DNA of 64,000 nucleotides from Candidatus Avimonas intestinalis (GCA_904380375.1 CAJFID010000006.1:1330-65329); one strand, 5' to 3'; shown: positions 21,333 through 38,283, counted from the stretch's first letter. The notes: a model not told the origin generated them from the sequence alone. Numbers and translations are program-made.

Positions 21333-21338
21333 CATTTT

Positions 21339-21368
21339 TAGATTAACGTTAACGTTATCGATAATCTA
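21339..21368. promoter_or_regulatory. 30-bp palindromic element, copy A (TAGATTAACGTTAACGTTATCGATAATCTA), candidate operator
   Basis: Starts 6 nt after the -10 and is 26/30 self-complementary. It is 27/30 identical to 48556-48585. Confidence 0.5.
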
Positions 21369-21517
21369 AGGCCCGTACGACAGATCACTGCGGAAAACCA
21401 TCAAAAAGAGTTGTTTGGTTTGCCAGTGCCGTTTTCATGAACAAAAGGCCGCCGGCTCATGCGGCAGGCGGCGGACAGAGCCCGGCCCGACCGCCGGGGA
21501 AGGGAGAGGGAAAAGGG

Positions 21518-22573
21518 TTGGAAACGCAGAAGAAGCTGGAACGCCTCCGGCGGTATTTGCAGGAGAACGGGATCCCGGCAGCGGTCATCAGCCGGCAGCC
21601 GAATTTTTCTTGGCTGACCGGCGGAGGGCGAGGCTTCATCGGCCTGGCGTCGGAAGCTGCCTGCGGCCGTCTTGTCGTTACAGCCGACCGGGCGGTCCTG
21701 GTGGCCAACAACATTGAAGCCGGCCGCTTGGCCGCGGAAGAGCTTCCCGCCGGCGTGTTTGCCAGTGAGATCGTCCCCTGGGCGCAGGACGGGGAGATCC
21801 CGGCGGTGATCCGGGGCCTGTGCCCGGACGGCTACCGCGCGGACGCGGAGCTGGAGCCCTTCTTCTTAAGCCAGCGCACCGTCTTGTGCCCGGAGGAAGC
21901 CGGCCGCTTCCGCCTTTTGGGCCGGGAGGTAGACAGGGCGATGTGGGAAGCGGCGCGGGGCGCCTCTTGCGGGATGTCGGAATTTGAAATGGCCGGCCGC
22001 CTGTCCGCCGCCCTTTGGAGCCGGGGGATTGAGCCGATCACCCTGTTGATCGCGGCGGACGGCCGGAGCCGGAGGGTGAGGCATTATGTCCCCACCGGCG
22101 CTTTGGCCCGGCAGGGGTTCCTCTGCTCGGTTTGCGCCCGCCGGGGAGGGCTGGTTGCCTCCGCCACCCGCATCCTGGCGTTCCGGCCGGACTTTGCACA
22201 GGAGTATGAACGGCTGCTTGAAGTAGAGGCCGCCGCAATCGGGGCAACGGTTCCCGGCCGGACGATGGGGGAGGTTTTCCGGATCATCGCCGCGGCTTAC
22301 GAGAAGGCGGGGTTCCCGAGGGAAATCCGGCGGCATCACCAGGGCGGGCTGACCGGCTACCAGCCCCGCGAGATCCGGGCGGATGCGGAAACGGCGCATG
22401 AGATCTGCGCGGGCGAGGCATACGCCTGGAACCCCTCCTGCGAGGGGGCGAAATGCGAGGACACCCTCCTGGTTACAGCGGAGGGGGCGGAGATCCTGAC
22501 CGCCGGCGGCGGTTGGCCGTCCCGGTTGGTTGCGGGGAGGGAGCGGCCGGCTGTGCTGCGGCTGTATGGCTGA
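21518..22573 (+). CDS. M24 (creatinase/Xaa-Pro peptidase) fold protein
   Basis: N-terminal LETQKKLERLRRYLQENGIPAAVIS and C-terminal pita-bread-like region. Start assigned to the TTG at 21518 behind GGGAGAGGG; the in-frame ATG at 21437 has no RBS. The start is uncertain. Confidence 0.65.
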   Translation: METQKKLERLRRYLQENGIPAAVISRQPNFSWLTGGGRGFIGLASEAACGRLVVTADRAVLVANNIEAGRLAAEELPAGVFASEIVPWAQDGEIPAVIRGLCPDGYRADAELEPFFLSQRTVLCPEEAGRFRLLGREVDRAMWEAARGASCGMSEFEMAGRLSAALWSRGIEPITLLIAADGRSRRVRHYVPTGALARQGFLCSVCARRGGLVASATRILAFRPDFAQEYERLLEVEAAAIGATVPGRTMGEVFRIIAAAYEKAGFPREIRRHHQGGLTGYQPREIRADAETAHEICAGEAYAWNPSCEGAKCEDTLLVTAEGAEILTAGGGWPSRLVAGRERPAVLRLYG

Positions 22574-23546
22574 CCGGAGGAGCCCGGCGACCGGGCCGGG
22601 CGCCGGGCTGGATGGCCGCTCCGCCGGCCTGCTGCTGGCCCTTTCCCTGATCTGGGCGGTGTATTACCTGTTCAGTCAGAGGCTGGTGGCGGCGCTCACC
22701 TGCTTCCCCGCCGGCCTGGCCATCCGGGTGCTCACGTTTTTCCTCCTGCCGCTCCTTGCGGCGGCCGGCCGGCGCATCCGGGAGCTGAAGCCCCCGCCGC
22801 TGCGGATGATGCCGGTGATGATGCTGATTGGGCTGCTGGGTTTTCTGCTTGACTTTACGGCGTTTTTAGGCCTGCGGCATGAGAGTGCCGGCGGCGGCAC
22901 CGTCCTGCTGAAAACCGACGTCCTTATGGCGGCGGTAATCGGCGCCGTGGTCTGCAAGGAAAAATTCCGGCTCCGGGACGTCGGGGCGATCCTATTGATG
23001 TTCAGCGGCGTCCTGCTGACCATGGATGTCTTTCATTTGAGGCTTTCGGGGCTTAACGACCTGTTTTTTGTCCTCAGCGCCTTTTTCGTTACGCTCAACG
23101 CCTTTGTCATCCAGTGGGCGCTCCACCACCCCCGCACCCCGGTCAAGGGGATGACGATTGGGTTTTACAACAATTTTTACGCGATGCTCCTATTTGGCGC
23201 CGCCGTCCTGATCAGCGGGACGGGGGAGGAGCTCGCCCAGGGGATATCCCGTCCGGACGTATGGGGCGTGGCGCTGGCAGCGGGCCTGGGCCAAAGCTTT
23301 GTCTATGTATTTTATTACGCTGCGCTGGGCCGCCAGCCGGTCTGGATCGTCAAGGTGTTCCTGCTGCTGATGCCGGTGTTTACCACCGCCATAGAGGCAG
23401 CCGCCTCGTGGCTCTTAACAGGGGAGTCCGGGCTGAGCTGGTCCCGCTTGGCGGGGATGGCTCTGGTGCTGGCCGGGGCGGCGGTCCTGCTCCTGAAAAA
23501 GAGGCCGGCGGCCTCCGCATCCCCGCCCCCGCAAAAAGGGGAATAA
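22566..23546 (+). CDS. EamA/DMT-family transporter
   Basis: About 326 aa with ~10 TM helices in two repeats. The ATG at 22566 overlaps the upstream stop. Confidence 0.75.
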   Translation: MADRRSPATGPGAGLDGRSAGLLLALSLIWAVYYLFSQRLVAALTCFPAGLAIRVLTFFLLPLLAAAGRRIRELKPPPLRMMPVMMLIGLLGFLLDFTAFLGLRHESAGGGTVLLKTDVLMAAVIGAVVCKEKFRLRDVGAILLMFSGVLLTMDVFHLRLSGLNDLFFVLSAFFVTLNAFVIQWALHHPRTPVKGMTIGFYNNFYAMLLFGAAVLISGTGEELAQGISRPDVWGVALAAGLGQSFVYVFYYAALGRQPVWIVKVFLLLMPVFTTAIEAAASWLLTGESGLSWSRLAGMALVLAGAAVLLLKKRPAASASPPPQKGE

Positions 23547-23578: not shown

Positions 23579-24733
23579 ATGGAATTTTCGTGTTATCTGC
23601 CGGTGCGCATCCGGTTCGGCTCCGAGGCGCTGCGGCAGCTTGCCGGCCGGGCGGCCCCGCCGGTGCTGATTGTCAGCACCGAAGCCCTGACGCGGCTGGG
23701 TATCACCGGCAAAGCGGCGAAAGCCTGCGGCGGCGCGCCGCTGATTTACGACCAGGTGGAAGCCAACCCCACGGTGCATACGGTAGAAAGCCTGGCCTGC
23801 CTGATCCGGGAAAAGCGGGTCGCTACGGTCGTAGCGGTCGGCGGCGGAAGCAGTATGGACGCCGCCAAGGCCGCCTCCTGCCTGGCGGCGGGGGAGGCCG
23901 ACCTGCGAGGATGCCTTTACCGGGGCGATCCCCTTCCCCGCCGGACGGTGTCCCTCCTGCTGGTTCCCACGACGGCGGGGACGGGGAGCGAGGTCACCAA
24001 CGTGGCGGTCCTTTCCGACCCGGAGGGGAACCGGAAAACCCCGCTGGTTTCCGACCATTTGTGGGCCGATGCGGCGATCCTGGCCCCGGAGATGACGCAG
24101 ACCGCCCCGCCGGGCGTGACGGCCTCCACCGGCTTTGACGCGCTGATCCACGCTGTTGAGGCGTACTGGGCCGTCTCTACCCAGCCGATTAGCCGGGCGC
24201 TCGGCCTGGAAGCCGCTCGCCTGGTCTGCCACAACCTGCGCCGCGCCTATGACGACGGCAGCGATTTGCAGGCGCGGGAGGGGATGCTCCTGGGCAGCCT
24301 TTTGGCGGGCATGGCCTTTTCCCAAACCCGCACGACCGTCCTGCACGCGGCGAGCTTCCCCCTCACCAGCGAATTCCATGTTGACCATGGCCGGGCCTGC
24401 GCGGTCAACCTGCTGCCCGTCCTGCGCTACGTCCGGCGGTATATCCCGGGGCCGATGGAGGCCCTGGCTGCATACTGCGGATACGCCGGCTTTGCGGAGT
24501 GGGCGGCGATGCTGGAGGAGTTGATGGCCCACTGCCGGATGCCTCTTAGCCTAGGCGAGGTAGGGGTCACAGCGGCGGATATCCCCCATCTGGCGAAGGT
24601 GACCGTGAGCGCCGCCATCGCCGGGCTTACCCCGGCGCCGATCAATGAGACCGTCGTACAGAGCCTGCTGGCAGACAATTTGTACCGCAGGAAAGGAGGG
24701 GCCACACCGCCCGAGGATTCGGGCAATGCGTAA
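23579..24733 (+). CDS. iron-containing alcohol dehydrogenase family protein
   Basis: 384 aa from the ATG at 23579 (RBS GAAAGGGAG). Motifs AVGGGSSMDAAKA, LVPTTAGTGSEVT and GFDALIHAVEAY. Confidence 0.85.
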   Translation: MEFSCYLPVRIRFGSEALRQLAGRAAPPVLIVSTEALTRLGITGKAAKACGGAPLIYDQVEANPTVHTVESLACLIREKRVATVVAVGGGSSMDAAKAASCLAAGEADLRGCLYRGDPLPRRTVSLLLVPTTAGTGSEVTNVAVLSDPEGNRKTPLVSDHLWADAAILAPEMTQTAPPGVTASTGFDALIHAVEAYWAVSTQPISRALGLEAARLVCHNLRRAYDDGSDLQAREGMLLGSLLAGMAFSQTRTTVLHAASFPLTSEFHVDHGRACAVNLLPVLRYVRRYIPGPMEALAAYCGYAGFAEWAAMLEELMAHCRMPLSLGEVGVTAADIPHLAKVTVSAAIAGLTPAPINETVVQSLLADNLYRRKGGATPPEDSGNA

Positions 24734-24799
24734 AAAGGACGCCGGCAGTTTCAAACAGTTCAGAAAATGAGAGAGCGATTTGGAGGGAGGAATCCAATT

Positions 24800-26011
24800 G
24801 TGAAAAGAGCGCTTACCTTGTGCCTGGCTTTGGCGTTCGCCGTTTTATCGGCCGTTCCCGGGATTTGCGCCGAAGCCGCCGATACGCCGCGGCTGGTTGC
24901 GCACTATGAGTTTGCGGACGGCGCCGTAGGGGAAGACTCCGCCGGCTCGGGCAGCCTCAAGGCCGTCGGCACCGACGGCGCCTCGGAGGCGGTGCCCAAG
25001 CTGGTGGAAGGGCCCAACGGGATGAAGGCGGTGGAATTTGACCAGACCTACGCCCTCGTCACCGACAAGCAGGATGTGACCGATACCCTGACCGAGTTTA
25101 CCGTCAGCTTCCTGATCAAGGCCAACGAGGCCGGGGAGATGCGCAACAACGTGTTCTCTACCGGCCTGGGCAACGGCAACCACCCCGACCATAGCGGGAT
25201 CAATATGCTGCTCAACCCCACCAAGGGGTATCCGGAGATCCGGCTGTACGGCGGCTCCGCCCCCAACAACGGGGAGAAGTGGGGGACGGATCAGTTCAAA
25301 AACGACGACGGGGAGGCCGGCGCCGCCAATTGGAAAAACCGAGAAAATCCCTATGTCTACGATACGAGCAAGTGGTACCGCGTGGTGCTGACCGTGAAGC
25401 TGGCCGACGGCAGCGCTTCCGGCTTCCAGAGCTGCTATATTGAGGCGATGGACGCAGTGCAGTCCAAGGCGGATTTCCGGGAAAACGACAATTACTACGT
25501 CGCCGCCCTGCCCAACAACCTGACCAGCATCCAAAACGAGAAATACCCGCTGTCGATCGGCGGTACCTACAATTATTGGGTAAGCGGCAGCAACCCGGAG
25601 ACCTTCTACAACGAAGCGGGCAAATTTTACGGGATGTTCATCGGCCAGCTGGCGGATTTCCGCATTTACGACAAAGCGCTGACCGACGACCAGATTGTGG
25701 AGCTCTTTGTCAGCAACCAGCTGGAGGGGGAGCAGGCGGCGGAAACCGACCCGCCGGCCGATACCCCGGAAGAGACGGATCCGGTCACTGAGCGGACCGA
25801 AAGCGATCCGCCCGCGCAAGGGACGGAGGACCGCCCCACAGAGCCTTCGGGTACGACGGCCGGGGAAGAAGAGGGCCTTAGCCCCGGGGCGATCGCGGGC
25901 ATTGCAGCGGCGGTGGTCGTGGTCGCGGCAATCGGCGTGGCGGCCGCGGTGCTGGCCAGCCGCAAAAGGCCCAAGGGAGACGGCACGCCTCCGAATTCCG
26001 GCGAGATTTAG
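24800..26011 (+). CDS. surface-anchored LamG/concanavalin-A-like lectin-fold protein (paralogue 1)
   Basis: GTG at 24800 behind GGAGGGAGG, then a signal peptide. LamG-type ends LVAHYEFADG...DSAGSG and LADFRIYDKALTDDQIVELF. P/T/E-rich linker, C-terminal TM helix and basic tail. Confidence 0.72.
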   Translation: MKRALTLCLALAFAVLSAVPGICAEAADTPRLVAHYEFADGAVGEDSAGSGSLKAVGTDGASEAVPKLVEGPNGMKAVEFDQTYALVTDKQDVTDTLTEFTVSFLIKANEAGEMRNNVFSTGLGNGNHPDHSGINMLLNPTKGYPEIRLYGGSAPNNGEKWGTDQFKNDDGEAGAANWKNRENPYVYDTSKWYRVVLTVKLADGSASGFQSCYIEAMDAVQSKADFRENDNYYVAALPNNLTSIQNEKYPLSIGGTYNYWVSGSNPETFYNEAGKFYGMFIGQLADFRIYDKALTDDQIVELFVSNQLEGEQAAETDPPADTPEETDPVTERTESDPPAQGTEDRPTEPSGTTAGEEEGLSPGAIAGIAAAVVVVAAIGVAAAVLASRKRPKGDGTPPNSGEI

Positions 26012-26097
26012 CGCCGGAAGGTCTGTGCAAGCTTTGGCGGTTGCTTGTAAATCGAACCGCTTAAAAATTTAGGGTGAAGCAAAGGAGAGAAACGGTC

Positions 26098-27291
26098 ATG
26101 AAAAAACGCACGATTTCCTGCGCGGTCCTGTCCGCCTGCCTGCTGTTCGGCGGCGCCACCGCGGCGATGGCGGAGACCCCAGCCCCGAACCTGGTGGCCC
26201 ATTACACCTTTGCCGATGCAAGCAACGTCGGCAAGGATTCCGCCGGCTCGGACGATATGACGGTGGTCAGCGCCAGCCTGCAGGAGGACGCCGGCCTGGC
26301 CAAGGTCGTGGACGGCCCGGACGGGATGAAGGCGCTGGAGTTTGACCAGTCCTACGCGCTGCGCACCGACGCCGACGACGTGCTGGACGGCCTCAAGGAG
26401 TTCACCATTACCTACCTGGTGGCGGCCAACGACGCGGGGGAGCTCAAGTACAACATGTTTTCCACCGGCTTGGGCAACGGCAACAACATCCAGAACAGCG
26501 GCATCAACGCCCTGATGGATTTTGCCAAGGATGAAAGCGTCCGCACCGGTTCTCCGGACGTCCGCCTGTACGGCAGCGAAAACGTCGGCGAGAAGTGGAC
26601 GGCCGACCAGCGCAAGAACGACGACGGCAAAAACGGCCGGAGCTTCTGGATCGACCGGATCGGCGGCGATATTGACGCGCCGGTGCCGACGTCCTATGCG
26701 GCCGGCGAATGGTACCGCATTGTCATCACCGTCAAGCTGAGCGACGGCACCAAGACCAGCGAGGAGCAGCAGCTGTGGCCGAACGGGAACCAGGGCGACG
26801 CCTTCTATCCCGGCACCGGCACGCAGAGCGTGTACATTGAAAAAATGGACGGCATCCAGGCCAAAAGCGACCTGGTCGAGAGCCAGAATTTCTATGAAAC
26901 CGTGCTGCCGTATGACCTGACCAGCATCAAAAACGAGAAATACGGCCTCACCCTCGGCGCGGCCTACGACGTCGGGAAAGACGCCTTCAACACCTCCGCC
27001 GGCGCCAATTACAGCATGTTCATCGGGAAGATGGCGGATTTCCGCATCTATGACAAGGCGCTGACCCAGGACCAGATCGTCAGCCTGTTCCAGAACAACG
27101 AGCTGACCGACACCAGCGGGCAGGAGGACGACACGACGCCGGTTACCAAGCCTCAAACGCCGGCCACTCCCTCCGGCGACGGCAACCCGTCCACCGGCGT
27201 GGAAACCAGCCTGCTGCCGTTCCTGGCGCTGATCCCTGCGGCGGCCGTAGTCGGCGTCCTGGCGGTCCGCCGCCGCAAGGCCGAAAAGTAA
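26098..27291 (+). CDS. surface-anchored LamG/concanavalin-A-like lectin-fold protein (paralogue 2, sortase-signal-like C-terminus)
   Basis: ATG at 26098 behind AAAGGAGAG, then a signal peptide. LVAHYTFADA...DSAGSD and MADFRIYDKALTQDQIVSLF. The C-terminus reads NPSTG, hydrophobic stretch, RRRKAEK. Confidence 0.72.
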   Translation: MKKRTISCAVLSACLLFGGATAAMAETPAPNLVAHYTFADASNVGKDSAGSDDMTVVSASLQEDAGLAKVVDGPDGMKALEFDQSYALRTDADDVLDGLKEFTITYLVAANDAGELKYNMFSTGLGNGNNIQNSGINALMDFAKDESVRTGSPDVRLYGSENVGEKWTADQRKNDDGKNGRSFWIDRIGGDIDAPVPTSYAAGEWYRIVITVKLSDGTKTSEEQQLWPNGNQGDAFYPGTGTQSVYIEKMDGIQAKSDLVESQNFYETVLPYDLTSIKNEKYGLTLGAAYDVGKDAFNTSAGANYSMFIGKMADFRIYDKALTQDQIVSLFQNNELTDTSGQEDDTTPVTKPQTPATPSGDGNPSTGVETSLLPFLALIPAAAVVGVLAVRRRKAEK

Positions 27292-27362
27292 CGGCCGGAT
27301 TGTCCAAGCTTTCCCCGCCGCGCCGGTGCGCGGCATGAAACCTCCTTTCACCAGACGGCGAA

Positions 27363-27386
27363 GGGCGGCGGGCCGGCCCGCCGCCC
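27363..27386. terminator. perfect 24-nt GC palindrome GGGCGGCGGGCC/GGCCCGCCGCCC after the LamG genes
   Basis: Read directly from the sequence. It would form a ~10-bp all-GC stem. There is no U-tract, so a terminator role is tentative. Confidence 0.3.
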
Positions 27387-27477
27387 GGCCGCCCTACCAA
27401 GACGGGATCCCCGGGGGACGGCGTTGCCTCCGTTCCCCGGGCCGGTTCCCCATTACAATAGGAGAGAAGAATACCAT

Positions 27478-28569
27478 ATGAATCCGTTTCGCGTAGCGGT
27501 GCTCGGTGCGGGCGACCGCGGGAAAGCCTACAGCAAGGCGCTCAAACAGCTGGAAAACGACTGCGTGCTGGTCAATGTCTGCGACATCCTGGACGACCGG
27601 GCGCAGAAAGCCAAAGAGGATTTTGGCTTTGAAGAAACCTTTTACGATTACCGGGACGCCGTGGATACAAATGACATCGACATCGTTATTGTCTGCACCC
27701 CGGCGTATTTCCACAGCGAGATGGCGATGTACGCCTTGAACCGCAAAAAGCATGTCCTATGTGAAAAACCGATGGACCTGTCCTTTGAAAAAGCGAGCGA
27801 AATGGTGGCTTGCGCCAAACGAAACGGCCGTGTGCTGGCCATCGGCCACCAATATCATAATTTTATGAACTTCTGCAAGCTGAAAAAGGTATTTGAGCAG
27901 GGGGCGGTGGGCCGGCCGGTCCTGATGCGGTGCGAGGATACCCGCCCCGTCCGCCCGAAAATCGCCATGCACGACGCCGAATTCGGCAACGGCGGGCCGC
28001 TTAACGATATGTCCTGCCATTTTACCGACCTGATGCGGTGGTACTTTGACGCGGATCCGGTCAGCGTCTGCGCCAAAGGGCTGGTGCTGGCGGAAAACAG
28101 CCCCACGCTGGCATCCATCCCCAACAAAGCGGTGGATACGGTGAACATCCTTGTCACGTTTGCTTCCGGCGACGTCGGCGTCATTACCGTGAGCTGGGCG
28201 TATCCCAAAAACAAGCATTGGCGCCAGCAGGTATCCGCCTACGGCCCGGCCGGCACGGTCGAAGTGGCCGGCGACGCCGTGACCGCCTATCTTGAGGACG
28301 ACAACAACGTTACCTATGAACTGGACAGCCGGGAACGGGATGAGACGGAGAACCCGGAAAAGACGGTGCTCCGCCATTTCCTTGACGAGATCAACGGCGT
28401 GGGCAAGGTGCAGGTGACGGGGGAGGACGCGCTCAAGGCCTTTGCGGTATCCCTGGCCGCCGTCAAGTCCTCCCGGCTGGGCCGGCCGGTCTCCCTGCAG
28501 GAGATATACAACGAGAAGCCCAGCATCTACAGCGCGATGCACGAAAAAGAGGAGGGAAGGACATGGTAA
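27478..28569 (+). CDS. Gfo/Idh/MocA family oxidoreductase
   Basis: ATG at 27478 behind AGGAGAG. Motifs FRVAVLGAGDRGKAY (Rossmann) and HVLCEKP. Confidence 0.85.
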   Translation: MNPFRVAVLGAGDRGKAYSKALKQLENDCVLVNVCDILDDRAQKAKEDFGFEETFYDYRDAVDTNDIDIVIVCTPAYFHSEMAMYALNRKKHVLCEKPMDLSFEKASEMVACAKRNGRVLAIGHQYHNFMNFCKLKKVFEQGAVGRPVLMRCEDTRPVRPKIAMHDAEFGNGGPLNDMSCHFTDLMRWYFDADPVSVCAKGLVLAENSPTLASIPNKAVDTVNILVTFASGDVGVITVSWAYPKNKHWRQQVSAYGPAGTVEVAGDAVTAYLEDDNNVTYELDSRERDETENPEKTVLRHFLDEINGVGKVQVTGEDALKAFAVSLAAVKSSRLGRPVSLQEIYNEKPSIYSAMHEKEEGRTW

Positions 28570-29333
28570 AAATCGCCTGCCAGACCATTGTGTTTGGGGA
28601 ACATATCAAAGAAAACATCAAGACCATCCTCCCGGCCGTAAAAAAGGCCGGGTACGACGGGGTGGAAATCGGCGTCCGCCATCTGGACAAGGCCCGTCCG
28701 GACTATTACCGCGAGCTGCTCCGGCGCAACGGGCTGGAGCTCCTGGCCATCCATGTGGGCGGCAACTTTTTGGAGCCGGATTCCGTACAGAAGCAGATTG
28801 ATACCTTTGAAGACACCCTGCGTTTTGCCTGCGAGCTGGAAATCCCTTACCTGTTTATTTCCGGATTTCATAAAAAGGGCAAGACCAAGGAGGATTACCA
28901 GGAGGAGGCGGCCGTCTATAACCGCTTAGGGGAAATGTGCCGCAGCCAGGGCCGGAAGCTTTGCTTCCACAACCATGACTGGGAGATCTGGAACGGGGAA
29001 ATGGGGTTCCGTACCCTGATGGCCAATACCGACCCGGAGGTATTCCGCCTGGTGCCGGACGTGGGCTGGGTGTTCCGCGGCGGAGCCGACCCGGTGACGC
29101 TCCTTACCGAATTCAAGGACCGCATTGAGGCGCTGCATTTTAAGGAATTTACCGCGGACAATTCCTTTACGGAGCTGGGGGAGGGCGTCGTGCCGTTCCG
29201 GGAGGTATACCAGGCGTTCCACGGCCTCCGGGATCCGCTGTGGCTGGTGGCCGAGCAGGACAAGACCGTCAAGGGCCCCGAGGCCAGCGCGGCGGAAAAC
29301 TACCGCTATCTTGCCGGCCTCTGCGGCCGATAA
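28563..29333 (+). CDS. sugar phosphate isomerase/epimerase (xylose-isomerase-like TIM barrel)
   Basis: 256 aa. KKAGYDGVEIG, LCFHNHDWE and DVGW are typical of the AP_endonuc_2/xylose isomerase-like family. Overlaps the upstream stop by 7 nt. Confidence 0.82.
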   Translation: MVKIACQTIVFGEHIKENIKTILPAVKKAGYDGVEIGVRHLDKARPDYYRELLRRNGLELLAIHVGGNFLEPDSVQKQIDTFEDTLRFACELEIPYLFISGFHKKGKTKEDYQEEAAVYNRLGEMCRSQGRKLCFHNHDWEIWNGEMGFRTLMANTDPEVFRLVPDVGWVFRGGADPVTLLTEFKDRIEALHFKEFTADNSFTELGEGVVPFREVYQAFHGLRDPLWLVAEQDKTVKGPEASAAENYRYLAGLCGR

Positions 29334-29345
29334 GGGGGGCGCCCG

Positions 29346-30662
29346 ATGAAATATCCGGTAACCATCGGCGTCGTGATGCTCGCGCGCAACACCTTTGATT
29401 ACGAAGCCGCCCGCAGCCTGTATGCGCAGATCCGCCGGGACCTGCAAAGCGTGCCCAACGCGTCGTTTGTCTGCGCGGACGACCTGGTGTTTGAAGTCCC
29501 CGACCTGGACGCGCCGATCAAAAAGATCCAAAAGGCGGGGGTGGATGGCCTGGCGATTATCAGCGGCACCTTCCATCTGGGCCATCTGGCGCTGGAGATC
29601 GCCAAGCGGACTGACGTGCCGCTGCTGCTCTGGGGCCTGCCCGAGTTGCCATACAACGGCGGGAAGATCCGGCTGAATTCGGTATGCGGCGTCAACCTGA
29701 ACGCCTCCAACCTGTATAAGGCGGGGCGGGACGATTTTCATTACTGCGTGTCGGATAAGATCGACCAGGATTGGGTCGATGCCGTGCGGATCCGCGCCAA
29801 GCTGAAAGCGGCGAAAATCGGCCTGCTGGGCTTCCGAGCGCACGGGTTTTTCAACCTTGCGTTTGACGAGCTTTCCCTGTACCAAGAAACCGGCGTCCTC
29901 CTTGACCATTTCGAGCTGGCCGATTTGTGGAACGAGCCGGTCGAACCCGAATCGGTGCAGGCGCGCAGGGCGCAGATCGCCGGGCTGTTTGACCTTTCGG
30001 GGGTGAGCGGCGCCCAGGTGCAGAAGGTAGCGGAGCTTTGCGAACGCTTCCGGGCGTTTATGGACCGCCGGGGCTTGTCCGGCCTGGCGGTGCGCTGCTG
30101 GCCGGAATTTGCCGCCGGCTACGGCGTGTCCCCCTGCGCGGCCATGTCCGTTTTGCAGGGCGAGGGTTATATAATCGGCTGCGAGGGGGATGTGCAGGGG
30201 GTCATTTCCCAGTTGATGCACACCGCCATCGGGGTGGAGCAGCCCTTCCTGGCCGATCTGTCGCAGGTCGATTTTGAGGACGATTCCGCCCTGATGTGGC
30301 ACTGCGGTGTGGCGCCCTGCGGCCTTTGGGACGAGTGCAGCGTCCGCTCCCTGGATTCCTATTACGCGGGAGGCCGGGGCGTTACCGCCGATTTCGTGCT
30401 TAAGAGCGGACGGGTCCAGGTGCTGCGGATGGATTTTGCCCGGGGCCGGTCCCGGCTTTTCGTGGGCTGCGGCGAGGCGTTTTCGGTCCCCAAGGAGCTC
30501 AAGGGTACCTATGTCAAGGTCGTATTTGACAAGCCTGTAGAGGAAGTGCTGGATACCGTCATACGCAACGGGATTGCCCATCACGTCTCCCTGGCGTATG
30601 GGGACAACGTCCGGCCGCTTGCCCTGTATGCCCGCATGAACGGCATGAAGTGGATTGAATGA
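29346..30662 (+). CDS. L-fucose/L-arabinose isomerase family protein (FucI-like)
   Basis: 438 aa. The pattern GLLGFRAHGF...IIGCEGDVQGVISQL...MWHCG resembles the COG2407 isomerase family. Confidence 0.75.
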   Translation: MKYPVTIGVVMLARNTFDYEAARSLYAQIRRDLQSVPNASFVCADDLVFEVPDLDAPIKKIQKAGVDGLAIISGTFHLGHLALEIAKRTDVPLLLWGLPELPYNGGKIRLNSVCGVNLNASNLYKAGRDDFHYCVSDKIDQDWVDAVRIRAKLKAAKIGLLGFRAHGFFNLAFDELSLYQETGVLLDHFELADLWNEPVEPESVQARRAQIAGLFDLSGVSGAQVQKVAELCERFRAFMDRRGLSGLAVRCWPEFAAGYGVSPCAAMSVLQGEGYIIGCEGDVQGVISQLMHTAIGVEQPFLADLSQVDFEDDSALMWHCGVAPCGLWDECSVRSLDSYYAGGRGVTADFVLKSGRVQVLRMDFARGRSRLFVGCGEAFSVPKELKGTYVKVVFDKPVEEVLDTVIRNGIAHHVSLAYGDNVRPLALYARMNGMKWIE

Positions 30663-30677
30663 GAAAGGCGGTATAGC

Positions 30678-31505
30678 ATGCAGGAAACAGAACGCAAACG
30701 GCTGAATGAGAAATGCGCGGATATCCGCCGCTTGATTATTGAGGAGATCGGGCGTCTGGGGGTCGGCCATATCGGCGGCTGCCTTTCGATTGTGGAGGCG
30801 CTGGTCGTGCTGTATTACCGGCAGATGCATATTGACCCCCGGAACCCGTCCCTGCCCGACCGGGACCGCTTCGTCCTTTCCAAGGGGCATGCCGGCCCGG
30901 CGCTGTACGCCGTGCTGGCCGACCGCGGCTACTTTGACAAGGAGTGGCTGTGGACCCTCAACCAGCCGGGAACCAGGCTGCCCAGCCACTGCGACCGGCT
31001 GCGGACCCCCGGCGTGGATATGACCGCCGGTTCCCTGGGCCAGGGCTTTTCGGTGGCGGTCGGTATGGCCAAAGCCGCCCGGATGGACGGGAAGACCCAC
31101 TGGGTCTATGCCATGATCGGGGACGGCGAAAGCCAGGAGGGTCAGATTTGGGAGGCCGCCCAGTTTGCCGGCCAGCATAAGCTGCGCAACCTGATCGCCA
31201 TGATGGATTACAACAACATGCAGATTGACGGCCTGGTTTCCGACCAGCTCGACGTCCAGCCGGCAGTGCAGCGCTGGGAATCCTTCGGCTTCTCCTGCGA
31301 GACGGTGGACGGGCACGACGTGGCGGCGATTGACGGGGCGATACAGCGTGCCAAAGCCGCCGGCCGCCCCTGCATGATCGTCCTGCGCACCATTAAGGGC
31401 AAGGGCGCCTATTTTGCCGAGGGAAAGGTGGAATCCCACAATATGACCGTGACCGAGGAGATGTGGAGGTCCTGTATGAAAGGAGGGGGCCGCGATGTGG
31501 GATAA
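30678..31505 (+). CDS. transketolase, N-terminal (TPP-binding) subunit
   Basis: 275 aa. Motifs SKGHAGPALYAVLA, GSLGQGFSVAVGMA and GDGESQEGQIWEA. Confidence 0.9.
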   Translation: MQETERKRLNEKCADIRRLIIEEIGRLGVGHIGGCLSIVEALVVLYYRQMHIDPRNPSLPDRDRFVLSKGHAGPALYAVLADRGYFDKEWLWTLNQPGTRLPSHCDRLRTPGVDMTAGSLGQGFSVAVGMAKAARMDGKTHWVYAMIGDGESQEGQIWEAAQFAGQHKLRNLIAMMDYNNMQIDGLVSDQLDVQPAVQRWESFGFSCETVDGHDVAAIDGAIQRAKAAGRPCMIVLRTIKGKGAYFAEGKVESHNMTVTEEMWRSCMKGGGRDVG

Positions 31506-32448
31506 GCTGGATGCGCAGGAGCTGCGCGCCGTATACATAGACGAACTGATCCGGTACGCGCAGTCCGACGAAAGGATCACCCTGGTCGAGGCCGATCTTT
31601 CCAAGGCGCTTACCTCTCCCCGGTTTAAAGCGGCCTATCCCGAACGGCTGATTGACGTCGGGATCTGCGAAGCCCATATGATCGGGGTGGCCGCCGGGCT
31701 CGCGCTTGAAGGCAAGCTGCCGTTTACCCATACCTTTACCCCCTTTGCTACCCGCCGTGTCTGCGACCAGATTGCGATTTCGGTGCTGTACGCGGGGTTA
31801 AAGGTAGTCATGGTAGGCTCCGACCCCGGTATTTCGGCGGAGCTCAACGGCGGCACCCACATGAGCTTTGAGGACATCGGCGTGCTGCGTTCCCTGCCTG
31901 GTCTTACGATTGTGGAGCCCGTGGACGCCGCCCAGCTTAGGCAGGCGCTCCCCCAGATCATTGCCGCGCCGGGGGCGGTATACCTCCGCCTGTTCCGCAA
32001 GCAGGCGCGCACGGTGTATGGCGAAGGCGCCCCGTTTGCCTTGGGCAAAGCCAATACCCTGCGGCAGGGGAGCGACGTCACGCTGATCGCCGGCGGGATG
32101 ATGGTGGCCGAAGCATTGCAGGCGGCCGACCGGCTGGCCGGCGAGGGGGTTCAGGCGCGGGTGCTTGATATGCACACTGTCAAACCGATTGACCGGGAGG
32201 CTGTGCTGCTGGCCGCCAGGGAAACCGGCGCGATCGTCACCTGCGACAACCATAACGTCATCGGCGCCATCGGCAGCGCCGTATGCGAGATAACGGCGGA
32301 GGAATGCCCGGTCCCGGTCGTACGCATCGGCGTGACCGACCACTTCGGCGAGGTAGGGAAAACTGCCTTCCTCAAGGAAAAATACCGCATGACGGCGGCG
32401 GATATCGCCGGCGCCGCTAAGGCGGCGATACAAAAAAAGCGAGGGTAA
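31495..32448 (+). CDS. transketolase, C-terminal (pyrimidine-binding) subunit
   Basis: 317 aa. Motifs GICEAHMIGVAAGLALEG and THMSFEDIGVLRSLPG. Overlaps the N-terminal subunit by 11 nt. Confidence 0.9.
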   Translation: MWDKLDAQELRAVYIDELIRYAQSDERITLVEADLSKALTSPRFKAAYPERLIDVGICEAHMIGVAAGLALEGKLPFTHTFTPFATRRVCDQIAISVLYAGLKVVMVGSDPGISAELNGGTHMSFEDIGVLRSLPGLTIVEPVDAAQLRQALPQIIAAPGAVYLRLFRKQARTVYGEGAPFALGKANTLRQGSDVTLIAGGMMVAEALQAADRLAGEGVQARVLDMHTVKPIDREAVLLAARETGAIVTCDNHNVIGAIGSAVCEITAEECPVPVVRIGVTDHFGEVGKTAFLKEKYRMTAADIAGAAKAAIQKKRG

Positions 32449-32453
32449 ACGCG

Positions 32454-32936
32454 ATGAGGATTGCATTGGGCTCAGACAAATCCGGCTTCCTGCTCAAGGA
32501 GGCGGTCAAAAAGTATTTGGACAGCCAGGGCATTGCGTACACGGATCTGGGGACCCTGGACGCCGAGCAGGGCCGTCCGTATTACGAGGTAGCTCCCGCC
32601 GTGGCCAAGGCCGTGCAGGCAGGGGGCTATGGCCGGGGGATCCTGGTCTGCGGGACCGGCATGGGCATGGCGCTGGTCGCCAACAAATTTTCCGGCATCT
32701 ACGCCGCCTGTGCGGAAAGCGTGTACGCGGCCCGGATGTGCCGGGCGGTCAACAACGCCAACATCCTGACCATGGGCGGCTGGATTATCGGTCCCGAAAT
32801 GGGCGTGGACATGGTCAAGGCGTTCCTGGAAACCGGGTTTACCCAGGGCCTTGAACCGTGGCGGGCGGAATTTTTGACCAAGGCGTATCAAATCGTACAG
32901 GAAATGGAGTCAGGAACGCAGTCAAATACCATCTAA
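32454..32936 (+). CDS. rpiB: RpiB/LacA/LacB family sugar-phosphate isomerase
   Basis: 160 aa. ILVCGTGMGMALVANK with the catalytic Cys region, and NILTMGG. Confidence 0.88.
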   Translation: MRIALGSDKSGFLLKEAVKKYLDSQGIAYTDLGTLDAEQGRPYYEVAPAVAKAVQAGGYGRGILVCGTGMGMALVANKFSGIYAACAESVYAARMCRAVNNANILTMGGWIIGPEMGVDMVKAFLETGFTQGLEPWRAEFLTKAYQIVQEMESGTQSNTI

Positions 32937-32952: not shown

Positions 32953-34428
32953 ATGAAAAAAGCTGTACGGCTTCTCAGCGCGGCGCTGATAGGCGCCTTG
33001 ATGGCCTTCCCCCTTGCCGGATGCAACCAGGAGCCGGCGGACACCCCGTCTTCGGATGGAGGCGGCAGCGAATTGACCGGCTCGCTGACGCTGGCTACCC
33101 TGCCTAAGTGGGTAGAGGACGTTACGGCCTATGTGGAGAACTTCAACGAGATCTATCCCAACGTCGTGGTGGAGATCATCGGCTTTGAGGGGACGGGCAA
33201 CGATTATCTGACCGCACAGGCCGCCGTGACGGACCTCCCCGACCTGATTTACGGCTTTTCCTCCGACAGCAACGTCCGGTACTCGGTGGAGCAGGGCTGG
33301 GCCTATCCGCTGGACGATTACGTCAATGCGGATCCCGAATTTGAGGAGATCAATACCGACGCGCTGCAGGCGTATACCTATGGCGATCAGCTCTACGGGC
33401 TGCCCTATGAGCTGGAATTCGACACGTTTGTTATCAATGCGGACCTGCTCGACACCCTGAACCTTGATATGCCCGAGATGGACTGGACGCTGGACGAGTA
33501 TATGGATCTGCTCAAAAAGGCGACCACCACCGAATATTCCGGCCAGAACGCGCTGGGGAATTTTTCCCAGAAGCTGACGGGGATTTTCGGGTCGGAAAAC
33601 GACCTGGGGGCCCATGGGTATAATCGGGAGGCCAATACCGTCAACCTGACCGATGGCTCCTGGGTCAGCGCCCAGCATTTTATCAAGGAAATGAAGGACA
33701 TCCCCGGCCTGATCTCGGATAACATGAAGGATCAGGAGAAGCGCAACGCCGGCCAGCTGGACGACTATCAGAAAAAATTCGGCGAGAACGCCGACGCCGC
33801 CCGCGAGGGCAAGGTGCTGTTTATGTTTAAGGCCAGCTGGGATTGGCAGTGGGTCAACTCCCTGGCCAACGACTGGCAGTATCTGCCCCTGCCCCATCCC
33901 GATGGCCAGCCCAGCCGGCAGTCGATGCATACCAAATGGGCGATGATGATGTCGACGACGGAATACCCGGACGCGGCGTTCGCCCTCCTCAAGCACCTCA
34001 CCTACGGCAAGGACGGCAACGTCAGCAAGCTGGAATACCTCAAGAACAAGCTCAACGAGTCCGGTGAGCCGGCCATGGAATTCTATATCCCTGTCACCAG
34101 CAATGACGAGGTCAACGCGGCGTTCCGCGATCTCGGCTTTGTCCCGGAGGGGCTGATGTGGCTGTACGAGAACATGGATACCGGCGCGTATGAGACTTTC
34201 CGCTCCGACTGGTATAAGGACGTTCCCGGCTGGGGGGATGTTTCCTCCAACATGAGCCAGCGTGCTATCCAGTGCGAAAACGGCGAGGTGCAGCCGGAGG
34301 CGGTGGCCAAGGAGACCGAAACGATGTGCAACGAGATCCTGGCGGAGCAAAAGGCGATCAGCGACGAAGCGATCGCCGCCGCGCAGGCCTCTTTTGCCGA
34401 AATCCGCGCGCAGGTGGAAGGCCAGTGA
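32953..34428 (+). CDS. carbohydrate ABC transporter substrate-binding lipoprotein (SBP family 1)
   Basis: 491 aa. Signal plus lipobox MKKAVRLLSAALIGALMAFPLAGC. Size and context are typical of a CUT1 SBP. Confidence 0.82.
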   Translation: MKKAVRLLSAALIGALMAFPLAGCNQEPADTPSSDGGGSELTGSLTLATLPKWVEDVTAYVENFNEIYPNVVVEIIGFEGTGNDYLTAQAAVTDLPDLIYGFSSDSNVRYSVEQGWAYPLDDYVNADPEFEEINTDALQAYTYGDQLYGLPYELEFDTFVINADLLDTLNLDMPEMDWTLDEYMDLLKKATTTEYSGQNALGNFSQKLTGIFGSENDLGAHGYNREANTVNLTDGSWVSAQHFIKEMKDIPGLISDNMKDQEKRNAGQLDDYQKKFGENADAAREGKVLFMFKASWDWQWVNSLANDWQYLPLPHPDGQPSRQSMHTKWAMMMSTTEYPDAAFALLKHLTYGKDGNVSKLEYLKNKLNESGEPAMEFYIPVTSNDEVNAAFRDLGFVPEGLMWLYENMDTGAYETFRSDWYKDVPGWGDVSSNMSQRAIQCENGEVQPEAVAKETETMCNEILAEQKAISDEAIAAAQASFAEIRAQVEGQ

Positions 34429-34461: not shown

Positions 34462-34537
34462 CCCGGCCCGGTGCGGGAAAGCGCCGGGCCGGGAGGCCGC
34501 CGCTCCCCGCCGCCGCGGGAGCCGGCGCCCGCTTTTT
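34462..34537 (+). terminator. intercistronic hairpins between the two SBP genes (possible partial terminator)
   Basis: 10-bp stem CCCGGCCCGG / CCGGGCCGGG (34462-34493), then GCGGG...CCCGC followed by TTTTT (34515-34537). Confidence 0.3.
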
Positions 34538-34565: not shown

Positions 34566-37373
34566 ATGAGAAAGCGGAAAAAAGCATGCTCCCTGGTTTC
34601 CTGCCTGGCGGTGGCCGCCGGGATGCTTGGAGCCGCCGGCGCTCCGGCGGCCGCCGCATCCGCGGCCCCGCAGGCGGAATGGCTGGCCATCCCGCCGGAG
34701 GACGTGGCCGCCCGCTACGCCGTGGAGGACGGCTTGGCCCTTGAGGCGGGGGATTCCGTTGAGATCACCCTGGATATCCCCCGCGAAGGCGAATACCGGC
34801 TGGCCCTGGTTTACCGGCAGGACGAATATCCCGCCTTCGGCAATACCGGGGAGCTGGTCATCAACGGCGAAGAACGGGCCGGCTTCAATCTGGGCGGCGT
34901 TTGGTACGACGAGCAGGAGGAGCCGCAGCTGGACCGGTATGGCAACGAGGTCGTGAGCGGCAGCGCCTTTGTGCAAGGGGCGGTCACCCAATATCTGAGC
35001 AGGGAAACCGACTACTACCGTCTCCAAAGCACCTACCTTCTCAAGGAGGGGGCCAATACCCTGGCCCTGACGGTTTCGGAGCTCCCGGTCACCGTCTACG
35101 AATTGATAGCGGTGCAGCCGGCCGCTTACAGCGGGCTTTCCGGCACGGCGGAAAAAAACGGGCGGCAGGTTGCAATCCAGGCGGAGGACTACGTTTGGAA
35201 ATCGGATTCCTATATCCACGCCGGCAATGCGCAGGACGCGGATGTGACCCCTTACGAAGTCGAGCGCAAAAGGCTCAATGTCCTGGACGGCTCCACGTTT
35301 GACACCCACCGCCAGAAGGTGGTGTATCAATTCTATGTGGAGCAGGAGGGCGATTACCGGATCGCGCTGCGGTATAACCAGGATTCCAAAAAGGGGATGA
35401 GCGTTTACCGCACGATTGCGGTGGACGGCCGGGTGCCGGACGCCTGCTTTGAAAGCGTCTCCTTTGCCTATACCGGCCTGGATTATGTGACCCAGACCGT
35501 GACGGACGGCGACGGTGAGGCATGGATCCACCTGACCCAGGGCTGGCACACCCTATCCGTCATCGCCACCGCCGCCCCCGTGGCCGCGTACCAGGAACGG
35601 CTGACGCAAACGCTTGAGGAGATCAGCGCGGCGGGCGTGGAAGTCAAAATGATTACCGGCGGACAGAACGACGAGAACCGGACCTGGAATATTGAGGAAT
35701 ACCTCCCCACCATTGTGGACGACCTCAACCGCTGGGCCGACGAGTTGGACGCGATATACGGCGAGCTGGAGCAGCTGGCCGGACAGAAACCCTCGTTTGC
35801 TTCCGCCCTGCCGAAGTCCGCCCAATACCTGCGCAGCGCCGCCTCTTCCCCCCGCACCCTGCCTTCCAAGACCACCAAGATCTTTGAGGGCTCCGGCTCG
35901 GTGGCCCAGATGATCGGCGACCTGATTACCCCGCTGCTCCAGCAGCAGCTGACCCTTGACCAGCTGTTTGTATACAGCGCGGACCAGCCGGCGGAGGAAT
36001 ACCCCGGTTTATTCCAGCGGATCCTGAACGGGATCCAGCATTTCCTGCTCTCCTTTTCGGCCGACTACAACGGCTTTGCGGACAGCGGCTTGCAGGAGGA
36101 TGCCCTTGACGTCTGGGTGAACCGCCCTTTGATGGCGGTGGAGACGCTCCAGATGCTGGCGGACGCTTCCTTTACCCCTGCCACCGGCATCCCGGTCAAG
36201 GTGACCATCATGCCCAGCGAGGATAAGCTGACCCTGGCCAACGCCGCGCAGGAAACCCCGGATATCGCGATGGGGCTGTCCCTGAGCAAGCCGTACGAGC
36301 TCGGCCTGCGGGGCGCGGTGGCCGACCTGTACGAATTCGACGATTTTCTTGATTACTACGGCGAAAATTACGACCTCCGGCTGCTGATCCCCCTTTGGGT
36401 GGACGGCAAAATGAGCGGCGTGGTGGAGAGCCGGAACTTCCAGGTGCTCTTTTACCGCAAAGACATCCTTGAGCGGCTCGGCCTGGAAGTCCCGGACACC
36501 TGGGAGGATGTCAAGCAGATGATGCCGGAGCTCAAGCGCAACGGCATGAACTTCCATGTGGCGCTGGCTTCCCACACCGGCAACAAGCCGATCGCGACCA
36601 CCTCGTATTATTTCGTCCAGAACGGGGCGGAGCTGTATTCCTCCGATGGGATGACCACCGCGATCAATCAGGAAAAAGGGCAGGAGGCCTTTGAGCTGCT
36701 GACCGACCTGTTTAATGTGTATTCCCTGCCGGTCACGACCGAGAATTTCTTTAACAGCTTCCGTTACGGCCGCATCCCGATCGGCATCTCCAACCTGGAC
36801 ACCTATATCCGCCTGAAAAACGCGGCGCCGGAAATCGCCGGGCTGTGGGATATCGCCCTTTCCCCCGGGATAGAGGATGAGCAGGGCGTCATCCACCGCG
36901 ACCAGACCAGCGCGGGCGAGACCGCCGTCATCATGCAGCGCACGGATCAAAAGCAGGAGGCGTGGGCTTTCCTCAAGTGGTGGCTTTCCACCGACGTGCA
37001 GGAGGAATACGGCTTTATCATGCAGACCAAGTTCGGCCCGTCCTTTATCTGGAATACCGCCAACGAGGAGGCGTTCCGGTCGGTCGACATTGAAAAGCGG
37101 CATATGGACGTGATTTTCGGGCAGTGGGAATGGACCTACGAGGTGCCGCTCCATCCCGCCTCCTATATCCTTGAGCGGGAGCTGTCCAACGCCTGGAACG
37201 ACGTGGTGGTCAAGAAAAAGGAGGTCCGCTCCTCGCTGGACAAAGCGGTCATCAACATTGACCGGGAGATAGAGCGGAAGCTTCAGGAATTCGGCTATGT
37301 GAAAAACGGGGAGATGGTCCAGCCCTACCGGCTGGCCACCCTTGAACGGATACAGGAAGGGGGAGGCGCATGA
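34566..37373 (+). CDS. 935-aa secreted fusion: two N-terminal beta-sandwich (CBM-like) modules plus an SBP family 1-like domain
   Basis: Signal peptide. Internal repeat [13 protein letters not shown] / [13 protein letters not shown] about 190 aa apart. The C-terminal ~550 aa resemble extracellular solute-binding proteins. Its stop overlaps the permease start (ATGA). Confidence 0.75.
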
Positions 37374-38260
37374 CGCGGATGAAGGCTTGGGTGGACAGGA
37401 AAGCGCATTGGGCCCTTTTGGCGCCGTTTTTGCTGCTGTTCGCCCTGTTTATCCTGCTGCCGGTGCTGGCGGCGGTCGGCCTCTCCTTTACCTACTTCAA
37501 TTCAATCGAGGCGCCCACCTGGGCCGGGCTGCAAAATTACTTATCCCTTCTCAAGGATCCGGTATTTATGCAGAAAATCCTCCCCAATACCATCCAGTTC
37601 GCCGTCATTGTAGGCCCGGGCGGGTTCCTGCTCTCCTTTATCATGGCCTGGCTGCTCGCCCAGCTGACCCGCGGGCCCCGCACGGTGCTGGCCGTGATCC
37701 TGTACTCGCCGTCAATGATCGGCGGTGTGACGATGGCCGTGGTATGGCGGGTTATTTTCAGCAGCGACCAGGCGGGCTACCTCAACAGCCTGCTGCTGTC
37801 CCTGGGGGCCATCAACGAGCCGGTCAACTGGCTGCAGAGCGAGGCCCTGCTGATGCCGATTATGATCCTGGTTTCGCTTTGGAGCTCGATGGGCGTCGGC
37901 TTCCTGGCGATGCTTTCCGGCATCATCAACGGGGACCGGGAGGTTTATGAGGCGGCGTATATTGACGGGGTATCCAACCGCTTTCAGGAAATTGTGTATA
38001 TCACCATCCCCACCATGAAGCCGCAGATGCTTTTCGGCGCGGTGATGGCCATCGTCAACACCTTTAAAACCAGCGACATCGGCGTACAGCTCTCCGGCTC
38101 CAACCCGACGCCGCAGTATGCAGGCAGCCTGATTGTCAACCATATCCAGGACTACGGGCTGATCCGGCATGAAATGGGATATGCGGCGGCGCTCTCCGTC
38201 GTGCTCCTTCTCCTCATCTTTTTCTCTTCCCAGGTTGCCAACAAGCTGTTTTCGGAATAA
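37370..38260 (+). CDS. carbohydrate ABC transporter permease (MalF-like), pair 1
   Basis: 296 aa with 6 TM helices. EAA motif [25 protein letters not shown]. Confidence 0.9.
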
Positions 38261-38283
38261 ACGCAAAGGAGCGTAGGTTTCTG

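Follow-up and report, generated by a model that had tools for sequence, protein, structure and literature searches.

The six-gene cluster

The window analyzed here is a 64,000-nucleotide stretch of DNA from Candidatus Avimonas intestinalis (GCA_904380375.1 CAJFID010000006.1:1330-65329), and all coordinates are positions in this window. Positions 27478-32936 carry six tightly packed open reading frames (ORFs), which a first-pass annotation had described as an operon for the rearrangement of a sugar, encoding a Gfo/Idh/MocA oxidoreductase, a TIM-barrel isomerase, a FucI-like isomerase, a split transketolase (TK), and RpiB. The present analysis concerns the assignment of this cluster to the catabolism of sulfoquinovose (SQ). 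The six genes, which like all others listed below lie on the + strand, are as follows.

27478-28569, + strand: NAD-dependent pyranose/cyclitol dehydrogenase of the Gfo/Idh/MocA family (ATG after AGGAG); putative sulfoquinovoside 3-dehydrogenase
28563-29333, + strand: xylose-isomerase-like TIM-barrel metalloenzyme; putative 3-keto-sulfoquinovoside 1,2-lyase
29346-30662, + strand: predicted SqvD-type sulfoquinovose isomerase, 438 residues (homologue loci and tree)
30678-31505, + strand: TK subunit binding thiamine diphosphate (ThDP), predicted SqwG (Transketolase_N; TK tree)
31495-32448, + strand: TK pyrimidine-binding and C-terminal subunit, predicted SqwH (Transket_pyr and Transketolase_C)
32454-32936, + strand: RpiB-family protein, predicted 4-deoxy-4-sulfoerythrose isomerase SqwI (LacAB_rpiB; motifs of the SQ clade)

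The ORF calls confirm the close packing of the six genes, with an overlap of 7 nt between the Gfo/Idh/MocA (Gfo) and TIM-barrel (TIM) genes and one of 11 nt between the genes of the two TK subunits (TK-N and TK-C). The remaining gaps had been given as 12-17 nt. This holds from TIM to the isomerase (12 nt), from the isomerase to TK-N (15 nt), and from RpiB to the 491-residue gene that follows (16 nt), but TK-C and RpiB are separated by 5 nt. Pfam and NCBIfam bear out five of the six family assignments, namely Gfo/Idh/MocA, xylose-isomerase-like TIM barrel, Transketolase_N, Transket_pyr with Transketolase_C, and LacAB_rpiB. The FucI-like label of the sixth protein found partial backing: the protein itself has no Pfam match at the default threshold, but many of its homologues carry PF02952, and it matches the NCBIfam model of the sulfoquinovose isomerase SftI. 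Annotation of 26 main ORFs in the region from 21 to 55 kb revealed no family of kinases, aldolases, or phosphotransferase system (PTS) components, in agreement with the earlier description.

The isomerase and its genomic neighborhoods

The match to SftI, the only NCBIfam model to which the 438-residue isomerase corresponds, changed the reading of the cluster to a sulfoglycolytic transketolase (sulfo-TK) pathway. The score of 201 bits lies under the cut-off of 700, but the isomerases of bona fide SQ loci score equally low (219 and 196 bits). Such low values fit the published identity of 32% between two types of SQ isomerase, the MSTE9-type (Faecalicatena) enzyme and that of Priestia aryabhattai SOS1 (PMC11659671).

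For a census of gene neighborhoods, species-representative genomes were scanned with the isomerase, and all ORFs of the 80 loci obtained, whose isomerases are 52-84% identical to that of the window, were clustered and the neighbors counted. The most frequent neighbor is a 670-residue protein of glycoside hydrolase family 31 (GH31), present in 48 loci, followed by a ROK regulator (38), TK-C (37), DUF4867, the SqvB family (32), TK-N (30), an iron-dependent alcohol dehydrogenase (Fe-ADH; 27), RpiB (25), and a TauE/SafE exporter (21). MFS_2 or ATP-binding cassette (ABC) importers are likewise common. Other loci combine the isomerase with a transaldolase and a β-hydroxyacid dehydrogenase of the sulfolactaldehyde (SLA) reductase type, or with a CoA-acylating aldehyde dehydrogenase and an ADP-forming CoA ligase. 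In locus L005 (Caloramator), the GH31 protein is a YihQ equivalog (1015 bits, cut-off 553). The gene sets published for the sulfo-TK and the sulfoglycolytic transaldolase (sulfo-TAL) pathways comprise SqvD, SqvB (DUF4867), SqwGH, SqwI (PF02502), SqwF (PF00465), SqwE, SqwD/KL, and YihQ, and the sets seen in the 80 loci correspond to the known sulfo-TK variants, both reductive and sulfoacetate-forming, and to sulfo-TAL variants (PMC9594981, PMC12890257).

The window isomerase, a member of a tightly conserved family of 438-residue proteins, is 52-60% identical, with no insertion or deletion across its length, to enzymes from loci that contain YihQ. In a tree of the isomerases, the window forms a clade with loci L001-L004, whose sister group (support 98) consists of L076, L037, and L064, all three with GH31 or SqvB; the GH31 of L064 is a fragment. 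The window lineage thus consists of five gut genomes of the Oscillospiraceae type (the window and L001-L004; metagenome-assembled genomes of Ruminococcaceae/Oscillospiraceae, human-gut ones with MGYG-HGUT records among them). In a sample at the level of the order, an SqvD-type isomerase occurs in 2 of 301 genomes, and the sulfo-TK cluster is therefore patchily distributed in the order.

Transketolase and RpiB

A tree of the concatenated TK subunits was rooted on a second split TK of the same genome, located on contig C18, and branch supports were calculated with the Shimodaira-Hasegawa-like approximate likelihood ratio test (SH-aLRT). The clade of the window and L001-L004 nests among the TKs of SQ loci, as sister (SH-aLRT 94) to a group with loci of Caloramator and other Clostridia that carry YihQ and SqvB. 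The window TK-N is 50-63% identical to the TKs of SQ loci, and the identities of the two window subunits to those of the C18 TK are 45% and 44.5%.

The window RpiB is 58-66% identical to the RpiBs of SQ loci in Clostridia and 35-39% identical to two paralogues in its own genome. In an alignment, it shares the signatures GSDKSG, CGTGMGM, NNAN, and LEPWR with the SQ clade, and at the same sites the two ordinary RpiBs of the genome read SDH/NDH, CGTGVGIS, HND/HNN, and RHQRR. In RpiB structures, the motif at the RHQRR position supplies the phosphate-binding arginines. Its replacement by LEPWR makes a rebuilt anion pocket in the window RpiB plausible. In the SqwI-type RpiB clade as a whole, LE(E/P)WR together with NNAN could be a sequence marker for sulfoerythrose isomerases.

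Both TK and RpiB are pentose-phosphate families, and no RpiA was found in the genome, so that a role of the window copies in general pentose-phosphate metabolism had to be weighed. The first-pass annotation had made its proposal depend on the presence of further copies elsewhere. Besides the split TK on C18, the genome (2.76 Mb, 99.4% complete) encodes DXS and two additional RpiBs, on contigs C4 and C32; the window TK and RpiB are therefore not the housekeeping copies. The C18 TK outscores the window TK on the TK model, and the two RpiB paralogues reach about 200 bits, compared with 142 for the window RpiB. The window copies also stand under a LacI-type operator amid transport genes. The probability that the cluster serves general pentose-phosphate metabolism is negligible.

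The substrate favored by the first-pass annotation was a branched or rare neutral sugar, apiose- or tetritol-like, that would reach pentose-phosphate intermediates by an undescribed route, and the enzyme set was said to match no known pathway. The annotation cited as precedent that pathway-specific split TKs and RpiB paralogues occur in apiose and tetritol routes. Those routes use kinases, however, which in the D-apiose route provide the TK with a phosphorylated ketose and of which there are none among the annotated ORFs, and the isomerase, the TK, and the RpiB all fall into clades of loci that contain a sulfoquinovosidase. A neutral sugar is thus highly improbable, and the combination of isomerase, split TK, RpiB, and Fe-ADH is in fact the published sulfo-TK set (PMC9594981). 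Two parts of the earlier proposal are supported: a dedicated kinase-less pathway in which a TK sends C2 units to the pentose-phosphate pool, and an RpiB that acts on a tetrose-level intermediate.

Proposed core pathway

The orthology and context described above suggest that positions 29346-32936 very probably encode the core of a sulfo-TK pathway, made up of SqvD, SqwG/SqwH, and SqwI. The substrate is most likely SQ, since all three enzymes belong to clades of sulfoquinovosidase-containing loci. We infer the individual activities from the published pathway. The SqvD-type isomerase would convert SQ to 6-deoxy-6-sulfofructose. SqwG/SqwH would then transfer C1-C2 of this ketose to glyceraldehyde 3-phosphate, which forms xylulose 5-phosphate and leaves 4-deoxy-4-sulfoerythrose. 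SqwI, the RpiB paralogue, would isomerize 4-deoxy-4-sulfoerythrose to sulfoerythrulose, and a second cut by SqwG/SqwH would yield a second xylulose 5-phosphate and sulfoacetaldehyde. The latter is probably reduced to isethionate by an Fe-ADH encoded upstream (23580-24733), and an EamA transporter (22530-23546) probably exports the isethionate. A kinase is unnecessary in the published pathway because the sulfonate at C6 takes the place of a phosphate.

Operon extent and upstream genes

The catabolic genes and the 491-residue gene are likely co-transcribed as a single LacI-controlled operon that begins near 21330. The features that delimit it or lie within it are the following.

21305-21368, + strand: sigma-70-like promoter (TTGACA-16-TATACT with TG) and, after it, a 30-bp LacI-type palindrome; likely start of the operon
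21437-22573, + strand: M24/creatinase-fold protein, encoded at the head of the operon (Pfam Peptidase_M24 and Creatinase_N)
22530-23546, + strand: EamA/DMT transporter, candidate isethionate exporter (Pfam EamA; start codon uncertain)
23580-24733, + strand: Fe-ADH, candidate sulfoacetaldehyde reductase in the SqwF role (Pfam Fe-ADH; ATG at 23580 after GGGAG)
24767-26011 and 26074-27291, + strand: two LamG-type surface proteins within the operon (weak Laminin_G_3 matches)
27292-27477, + strand: GC-rich structured spacer of 186 nt with three hairpins and no T tract
32953-34428, + strand: 491-residue protein without a Pfam match, called a solute-binding protein by the first-pass annotation only
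34511-34532, + strand: terminator-like hairpin with a T run, 3' of the 491-residue gene

The promoter at 21305-21332 matches 11 of 12 consensus positions and is the sole strong one within 20.8-35 kb. At the other end, the operon had been said to run into the gene of a solute-binding protein (SBP). The 491-residue gene does adjoin RpiB, but the SBP domains are found in the next gene, which encodes 935 residues. The 491-residue protein is 78-82% identical to its counterparts in L001-L004, and the LamG genes are kept in L001, L003, and L004. Between the LamG and the catabolic genes, the spacer folds with -91.2 kcal/mol (z -2.57); no Rfam family was detected within 20-36 kb, the spacer included. 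A role of this spacer in the processing or stability of the mRNA is possible.

The Fe-ADH likely has the SqwF role. Its identity to Fe-ADHs from SQ loci is 33-44%, and it scores 201 bits on the NCBIfam model of the sulfoacetaldehyde reductase SarD, under the cut-off of 700. L037, L061, and L076 encode homologues of the EamA protein (40-42% identity) between SqvD and GH31. The presence of EamA in these three YihQ loci, together with the lack of any TauE/SafE (SqwE) homologue in the genome, makes EamA a reasonable stand-in for the exporter. In the M24-fold protein, both Asp metal ligands of prolidase are replaced, as seen in an alignment to 5giu. Homologues at 38-42% identity occur inside two unrelated SQ loci (L039:8883-9971 and L075, about 1587-2690), adjoining SqvD in one and lying between TK and RpiB in the other, and the M24-fold protein may be an unrecognized accessory enzyme of sulfoglycolysis.

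Downstream of the operon, the 935-residue binding protein and an NHL-TPR-Yip1 membrane protein, in most copies together with a DUF5696 protein, form a cassette that recurs about seven times in the 2.76-Mb genome. The copies are located on contigs C1 (two), C15, C17, C18, and C22 and at 34566-43477 in the window, and one of those on C1 sits amid several GH31 genes. The G+C content is about 0.55 in positions 1-14000, 0.60-0.66 from about 14 kb, and about 0.50 beyond 60 kb, so that the carbohydrate region differs in composition from both flanks.

A putative entry module

The classical SQ entry genes, which are accessory to the core chemistry, are missing. Neither a YihQ equivalog, nor DUF4867, nor a close SqgA was found in the 99.4% complete genome, and the four sister genomes contain no YihQ equivalog and no DUF4867, the DUF4867 search being positive in the Caloramator control. 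Three of the four sister genomes have the Gfo and TIM genes beside the TK genes, at about 80% identity, and the contig of the fourth begins inside the locus. Wherever the sister contigs extend far enough, the overlap of the two genes and their position 12 nt 5' of the isomerase are kept.

Both proteins belong to small families, with 62 Gfo proteins at an E value of 1e-30 or better and 53 TIM proteins among 1.84 billion representatives. A metagenome scan with the Gfo protein returned a single relative (28% identity), and a sample of 400 genomes of the phylum contained no Gfo orthologue at 1e-40. Among the TIM representatives, protein P0206 is a natural fusion of both subfamilies in the order TIM-Gfo, and its Gfo half is 34% identical to that of the window and keeps the family motif R-P-K..MHDA..GNGGP. 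This fusion argues that Gfo and TIM work together. Other TIM relatives include a tandem TIM-TIM protein (P0183), which is the best match to the window TIM, and larger proteins (P0245 and P0295) that join the TIM barrel to ThuA or GSDH sugar-oxidation domains.

The catalytic residues of the Gfo protein, Lys-97, Asp-177, and His-181, are present. Its nearest folds are dehydrogenases of secondary alcohols in pyranoses and cyclitols, among them the C3-oxidizing DgpA1, KanD2, and levoglucosan dehydrogenase. When aligned with SqgA homologues, it keeps the equivalents of Lys-107, Tyr-136, and His-193. Two further residues, Arg-156 and Lys-161, align with the sulfonate ligands Arg-166 and Lys-172 of SqgA (residue roles from PMC10755693), a correspondence that is one of alignment only. 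Lys-161 is specific to the Gfo family of the window, and in five non-sulfo relatives it is replaced by Thr, Glu, Pro, or Ser. The window Gfo lacks a 14-residue loop of the C-terminal domain that in SqgA bears His-321, a residue in contact with the anomeric oxygen (PMC10755693). Its absence fits a division of labor with a separate lyase. Membership of the window Gfo in family GH188 was rejected: its E value to 8qc3 is 2e-15, compared with 1e-58 for the SqgA of L007, and the His-321 loop is absent. True SqgA homologues, with E values reaching 1e-58, are found in L007, L014, L021, and L065.

The model of the TIM protein has a predicted local distance difference test (pLDDT) value of 97.6. Its best fold match is 8tct (E value 1.9e-15, template modeling (TM) score 0.80), and 8tcd ranks fifth. 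These structures, from Bacteroides thetaiotaomicron and Alistipes, are named 3-keto-β-glucopyranoside 1,2-lyases in their Protein Data Bank (PDB) titles, and both by sequence and by fold these lyases and IolE are the nearest solved relatives of TIM. The metal tetrad Glu-141, Asp-166, His-192, and Glu-231 is invariant. Gut Bacteroides offer a precedent for a Gfo dehydrogenase acting with an IolE-like barrel in a 3-keto-glycoside route (PMC8121099).

On these grounds, we tentatively consider that Gfo and TIM might together release SQ from its glycosides in the cytoplasm. Gfo would oxidize the sulfoquinovoside at C3 with NAD+, and the metal-dependent TIM barrel would eliminate the aglycone from the 3-keto-glycoside. 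The product of the elimination would be rehydrated and then reduced back to SQ. The two enzymes would in this way replace the GH31 (YihQ) or GH188 (SqgA) enzyme missing from the lineage. A wider proposal is slightly more doubtful still: the pair might constitute a third kind of sulfoquinovosidase, dependent on NAD+ and metal and made of two proteins, that enables human-gut bacteria of the Oscillospiraceae type to import SQ glycoconjugates with a binding-protein machine of several parts and to excrete isethionate.

A further candidate for glycoside cleavage is the DUF5696 protein (41195-43477), which is exported and belongs to the downstream cassette. A sequence comparison gave no solved relative for it; the named ESM Atlas clusters closest to it are the GH101, GH129, and GH31 families, a lead by which it is probably an α-glycosidase-like enzyme.

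In other SQ loci, different arrangements of Gfo proteins were seen. The SqgA-like Gfo of a Christensenella SQ locus (L064:767-3978) also lacks the His-321 loop. L064 was considered as an independent case of a Gfo and TIM pair and rejected, because no Pfam family matches the neighboring protein (274 residues) and an amidohydrolase gene comes next. In L057 and L058, another Gfo subfamily lies 5' of SqvD; an Amidohydro_2-type protein is adjacent in L057 and lies nearby in L058.

Evidence against and alternative assignments

Several observations weigh against the assignments made above. For the core, gene context and trees are the basis of the orthology, neither the transporter nor the binding proteins of the window are related to their counterparts in other SQ loci, and the neighboring GH2, BNR, and LamG genes do not suit a simple diet of sulfoquinovosyl-glycerol. 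The Fe-ADH joins the Fe-ADHs of SQ loci rather than its own paralogues at a support of 68 and on a long branch, and its NCBIfam scores fail to single out sulfoacetaldehyde reductase. For the entry module, the best full-length matches of Gfo are inositol dehydrogenases of the IolG type, and Arg-156 also occurs in the non-sulfo relatives DgpA and KanD2. The TIM barrel is equally close to the IolE structure 3cny and to the lyases, and the fold thus leaves the reaction unfixed. There is no evident candidate for a hydratase that would act on the eliminated glycal, and the exported DUF5696 protein could release SQ instead.

Part of this evidence bears on an assignment of Gfo and TIM as an IolG/IolE-like module for a cyclitol or a neutral glycoside from another part of the imported glycan, SQ being released extracellularly, either by the DUF5696 protein or by a different glycosidase. 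In NCBIfam, the pair indeed matches IolG (161 bits) and IolE (79 bits) best, and the PDB entries that match best over the full length are two inositol dehydrogenases (3ezy and 3cea) and IolE (3cny). The resemblance of DUF5696 to GH101/GH129/GH31 (Atlas features) would provide the extracellular enzyme. The scores, however, are far under the curated cut-offs of 355 (IolG) and 290 (IolE), and the IolB/KduI family is absent from the genome; the classical inositol pathway was rejected on these grounds. The conserved overlap of the two genes and their short distance to the SQ isomerase, as well as the match of Lys-161 to a sulfonate ligand of SqgA, also oppose such a module, and we regard it as unlikely.

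Another anionic sugar substituted at C6 might undergo the same TK chemistry. It could be a different epimer of a sulfo-sugar (sulfofucose, for example), an oligosaccharide that bears SQ, or a sugar 6-sulfate of a host glycan, which Gfo and TIM would convert or epimerize to a sulfo-ketose acceptable to TK. This would account for the absence of the classical SQ entry genes from the lineage, for the long branches of the window clade (0.45 in the isomerase tree and 0.42 in the TK tree), and for the position of the locus amid GH2, BNR, and DUF5696 glycan genes. Xylose-isomerase-like barrels moreover include epimerases of ketoses and 3-keto-glucosides, with UlaE, YcjR, and psicose epimerases among the fold matches of TIM. 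Against such a substrate, transketolase requires the D-threo configuration, which the sulfofructose derived from SQ already possesses. The indel-free isomerase is nested within the enzymes of YihQ loci, and no sulfatase or other gene specific for a sulfo-sugar is present among the annotated ORFs. A substrate of this kind is distinctly improbable, and SQ remains the preferred one.

Significance

SQ is made on a gigatonne scale, and surveys of SQ degraders usually use YihQ or SqgA as markers. The five-genome lineage described here would escape such surveys despite its whole TK core. If Gfo and TIM do free SQ, they represent a new class of gateway enzyme and a new marker, and the strategy of 3-keto-glycoside cleavage extends to sulfo-sugars. 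If they do not, the locus is one more sulfo-TK cluster. Isethionate, if it is excreted as proposed, would be a substrate for sulfite-respiring gut bacteria that form H2S. Isethionate and 2,3-dihydroxypropane-1-sulfonate (DHPS), both products of SQ breakdown in the gut, are reported to feed the H2S-producing Bilophila (PMC12890257).

Comparison with known systems

The closest published system is the reductive sulfo-TK cluster of Clostridium sp. MSTE9, which comprises SqvD, SqvB, SqwGH, SqwI, SqwF, SqwE, and YihQ and was compared by its published gene set (Liu et al. 2021, as reviewed in PMC9594981 and PMC12890257). Common to both are an SQ isomerase of the FucI family (predicted in the window), a split ThDP-dependent TK, an RpiB-family protein as the tetrose isomerase, an Fe-ADH, the lack of a kinase, and an anaerobic host of the Clostridia type. 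Unlike MSTE9, the window has no GH31 sulfoquinovosidase and no DUF4867/SqvB, and it carries EamA in place of TauE and a LacI-type in place of a ROK regulator. It contains in addition the Gfo/Idh/MocA protein, the TIM barrel, the M24-like protein, and the two LamG proteins, and it is joined to a multi-part ABC uptake cassette.

The sulfo-TK/sulfo-TAL cluster of Faecalicatena sp. DSM22707 resembles the window in its sulfo-TK core of an anaerobic, Clostridia-type host and in that a protein of the Gfo/Idh/MocA fold, and not GH31, is proposed to free SQ (PMC11659671). In Faecalicatena, this protein is homologous to GH188, with 35% identity to SqgA, and is accompanied by a candidate mutarotase and by transaldolases (PMC11659671). 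In contrast, the window Gfo does not belong to GH188 and is paired with the TIM barrel, and there is no transaldolase. SqgA itself (GH188; PDB codes 8QC2-8QC8; PMC10755693) shares with the window Gfo the fold and the proposed first step, oxidation at C3, but in the window the elimination would fall to a separate enzyme.

Such a separate enzyme is a feature of the 3-keto-glycoside route of gut Bacteroidota and Agrobacterium (BT1/AL1, 8TCT/8TCD; the O-glycoside β-eliminase 8BVK; BT2156-2159, PMC8121099), in which a Gfo protein likewise stands beside a xylose-isomerase-like barrel with the metal tetrad. The window TIM is about 20% identical to the 3-keto-glycoside lyases, the window has no separate hydratase or DUF1080 protein, and the context is that of a sulfo-sugar rather than of neutral glucosides. 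The core pathway is thus already known, and what distinguishes the window is the putative Gfo and TIM entry module, the candidate EamA exporter, the LacI-type regulator, and the joining of these genes to one of seven copies of an uptake cassette.

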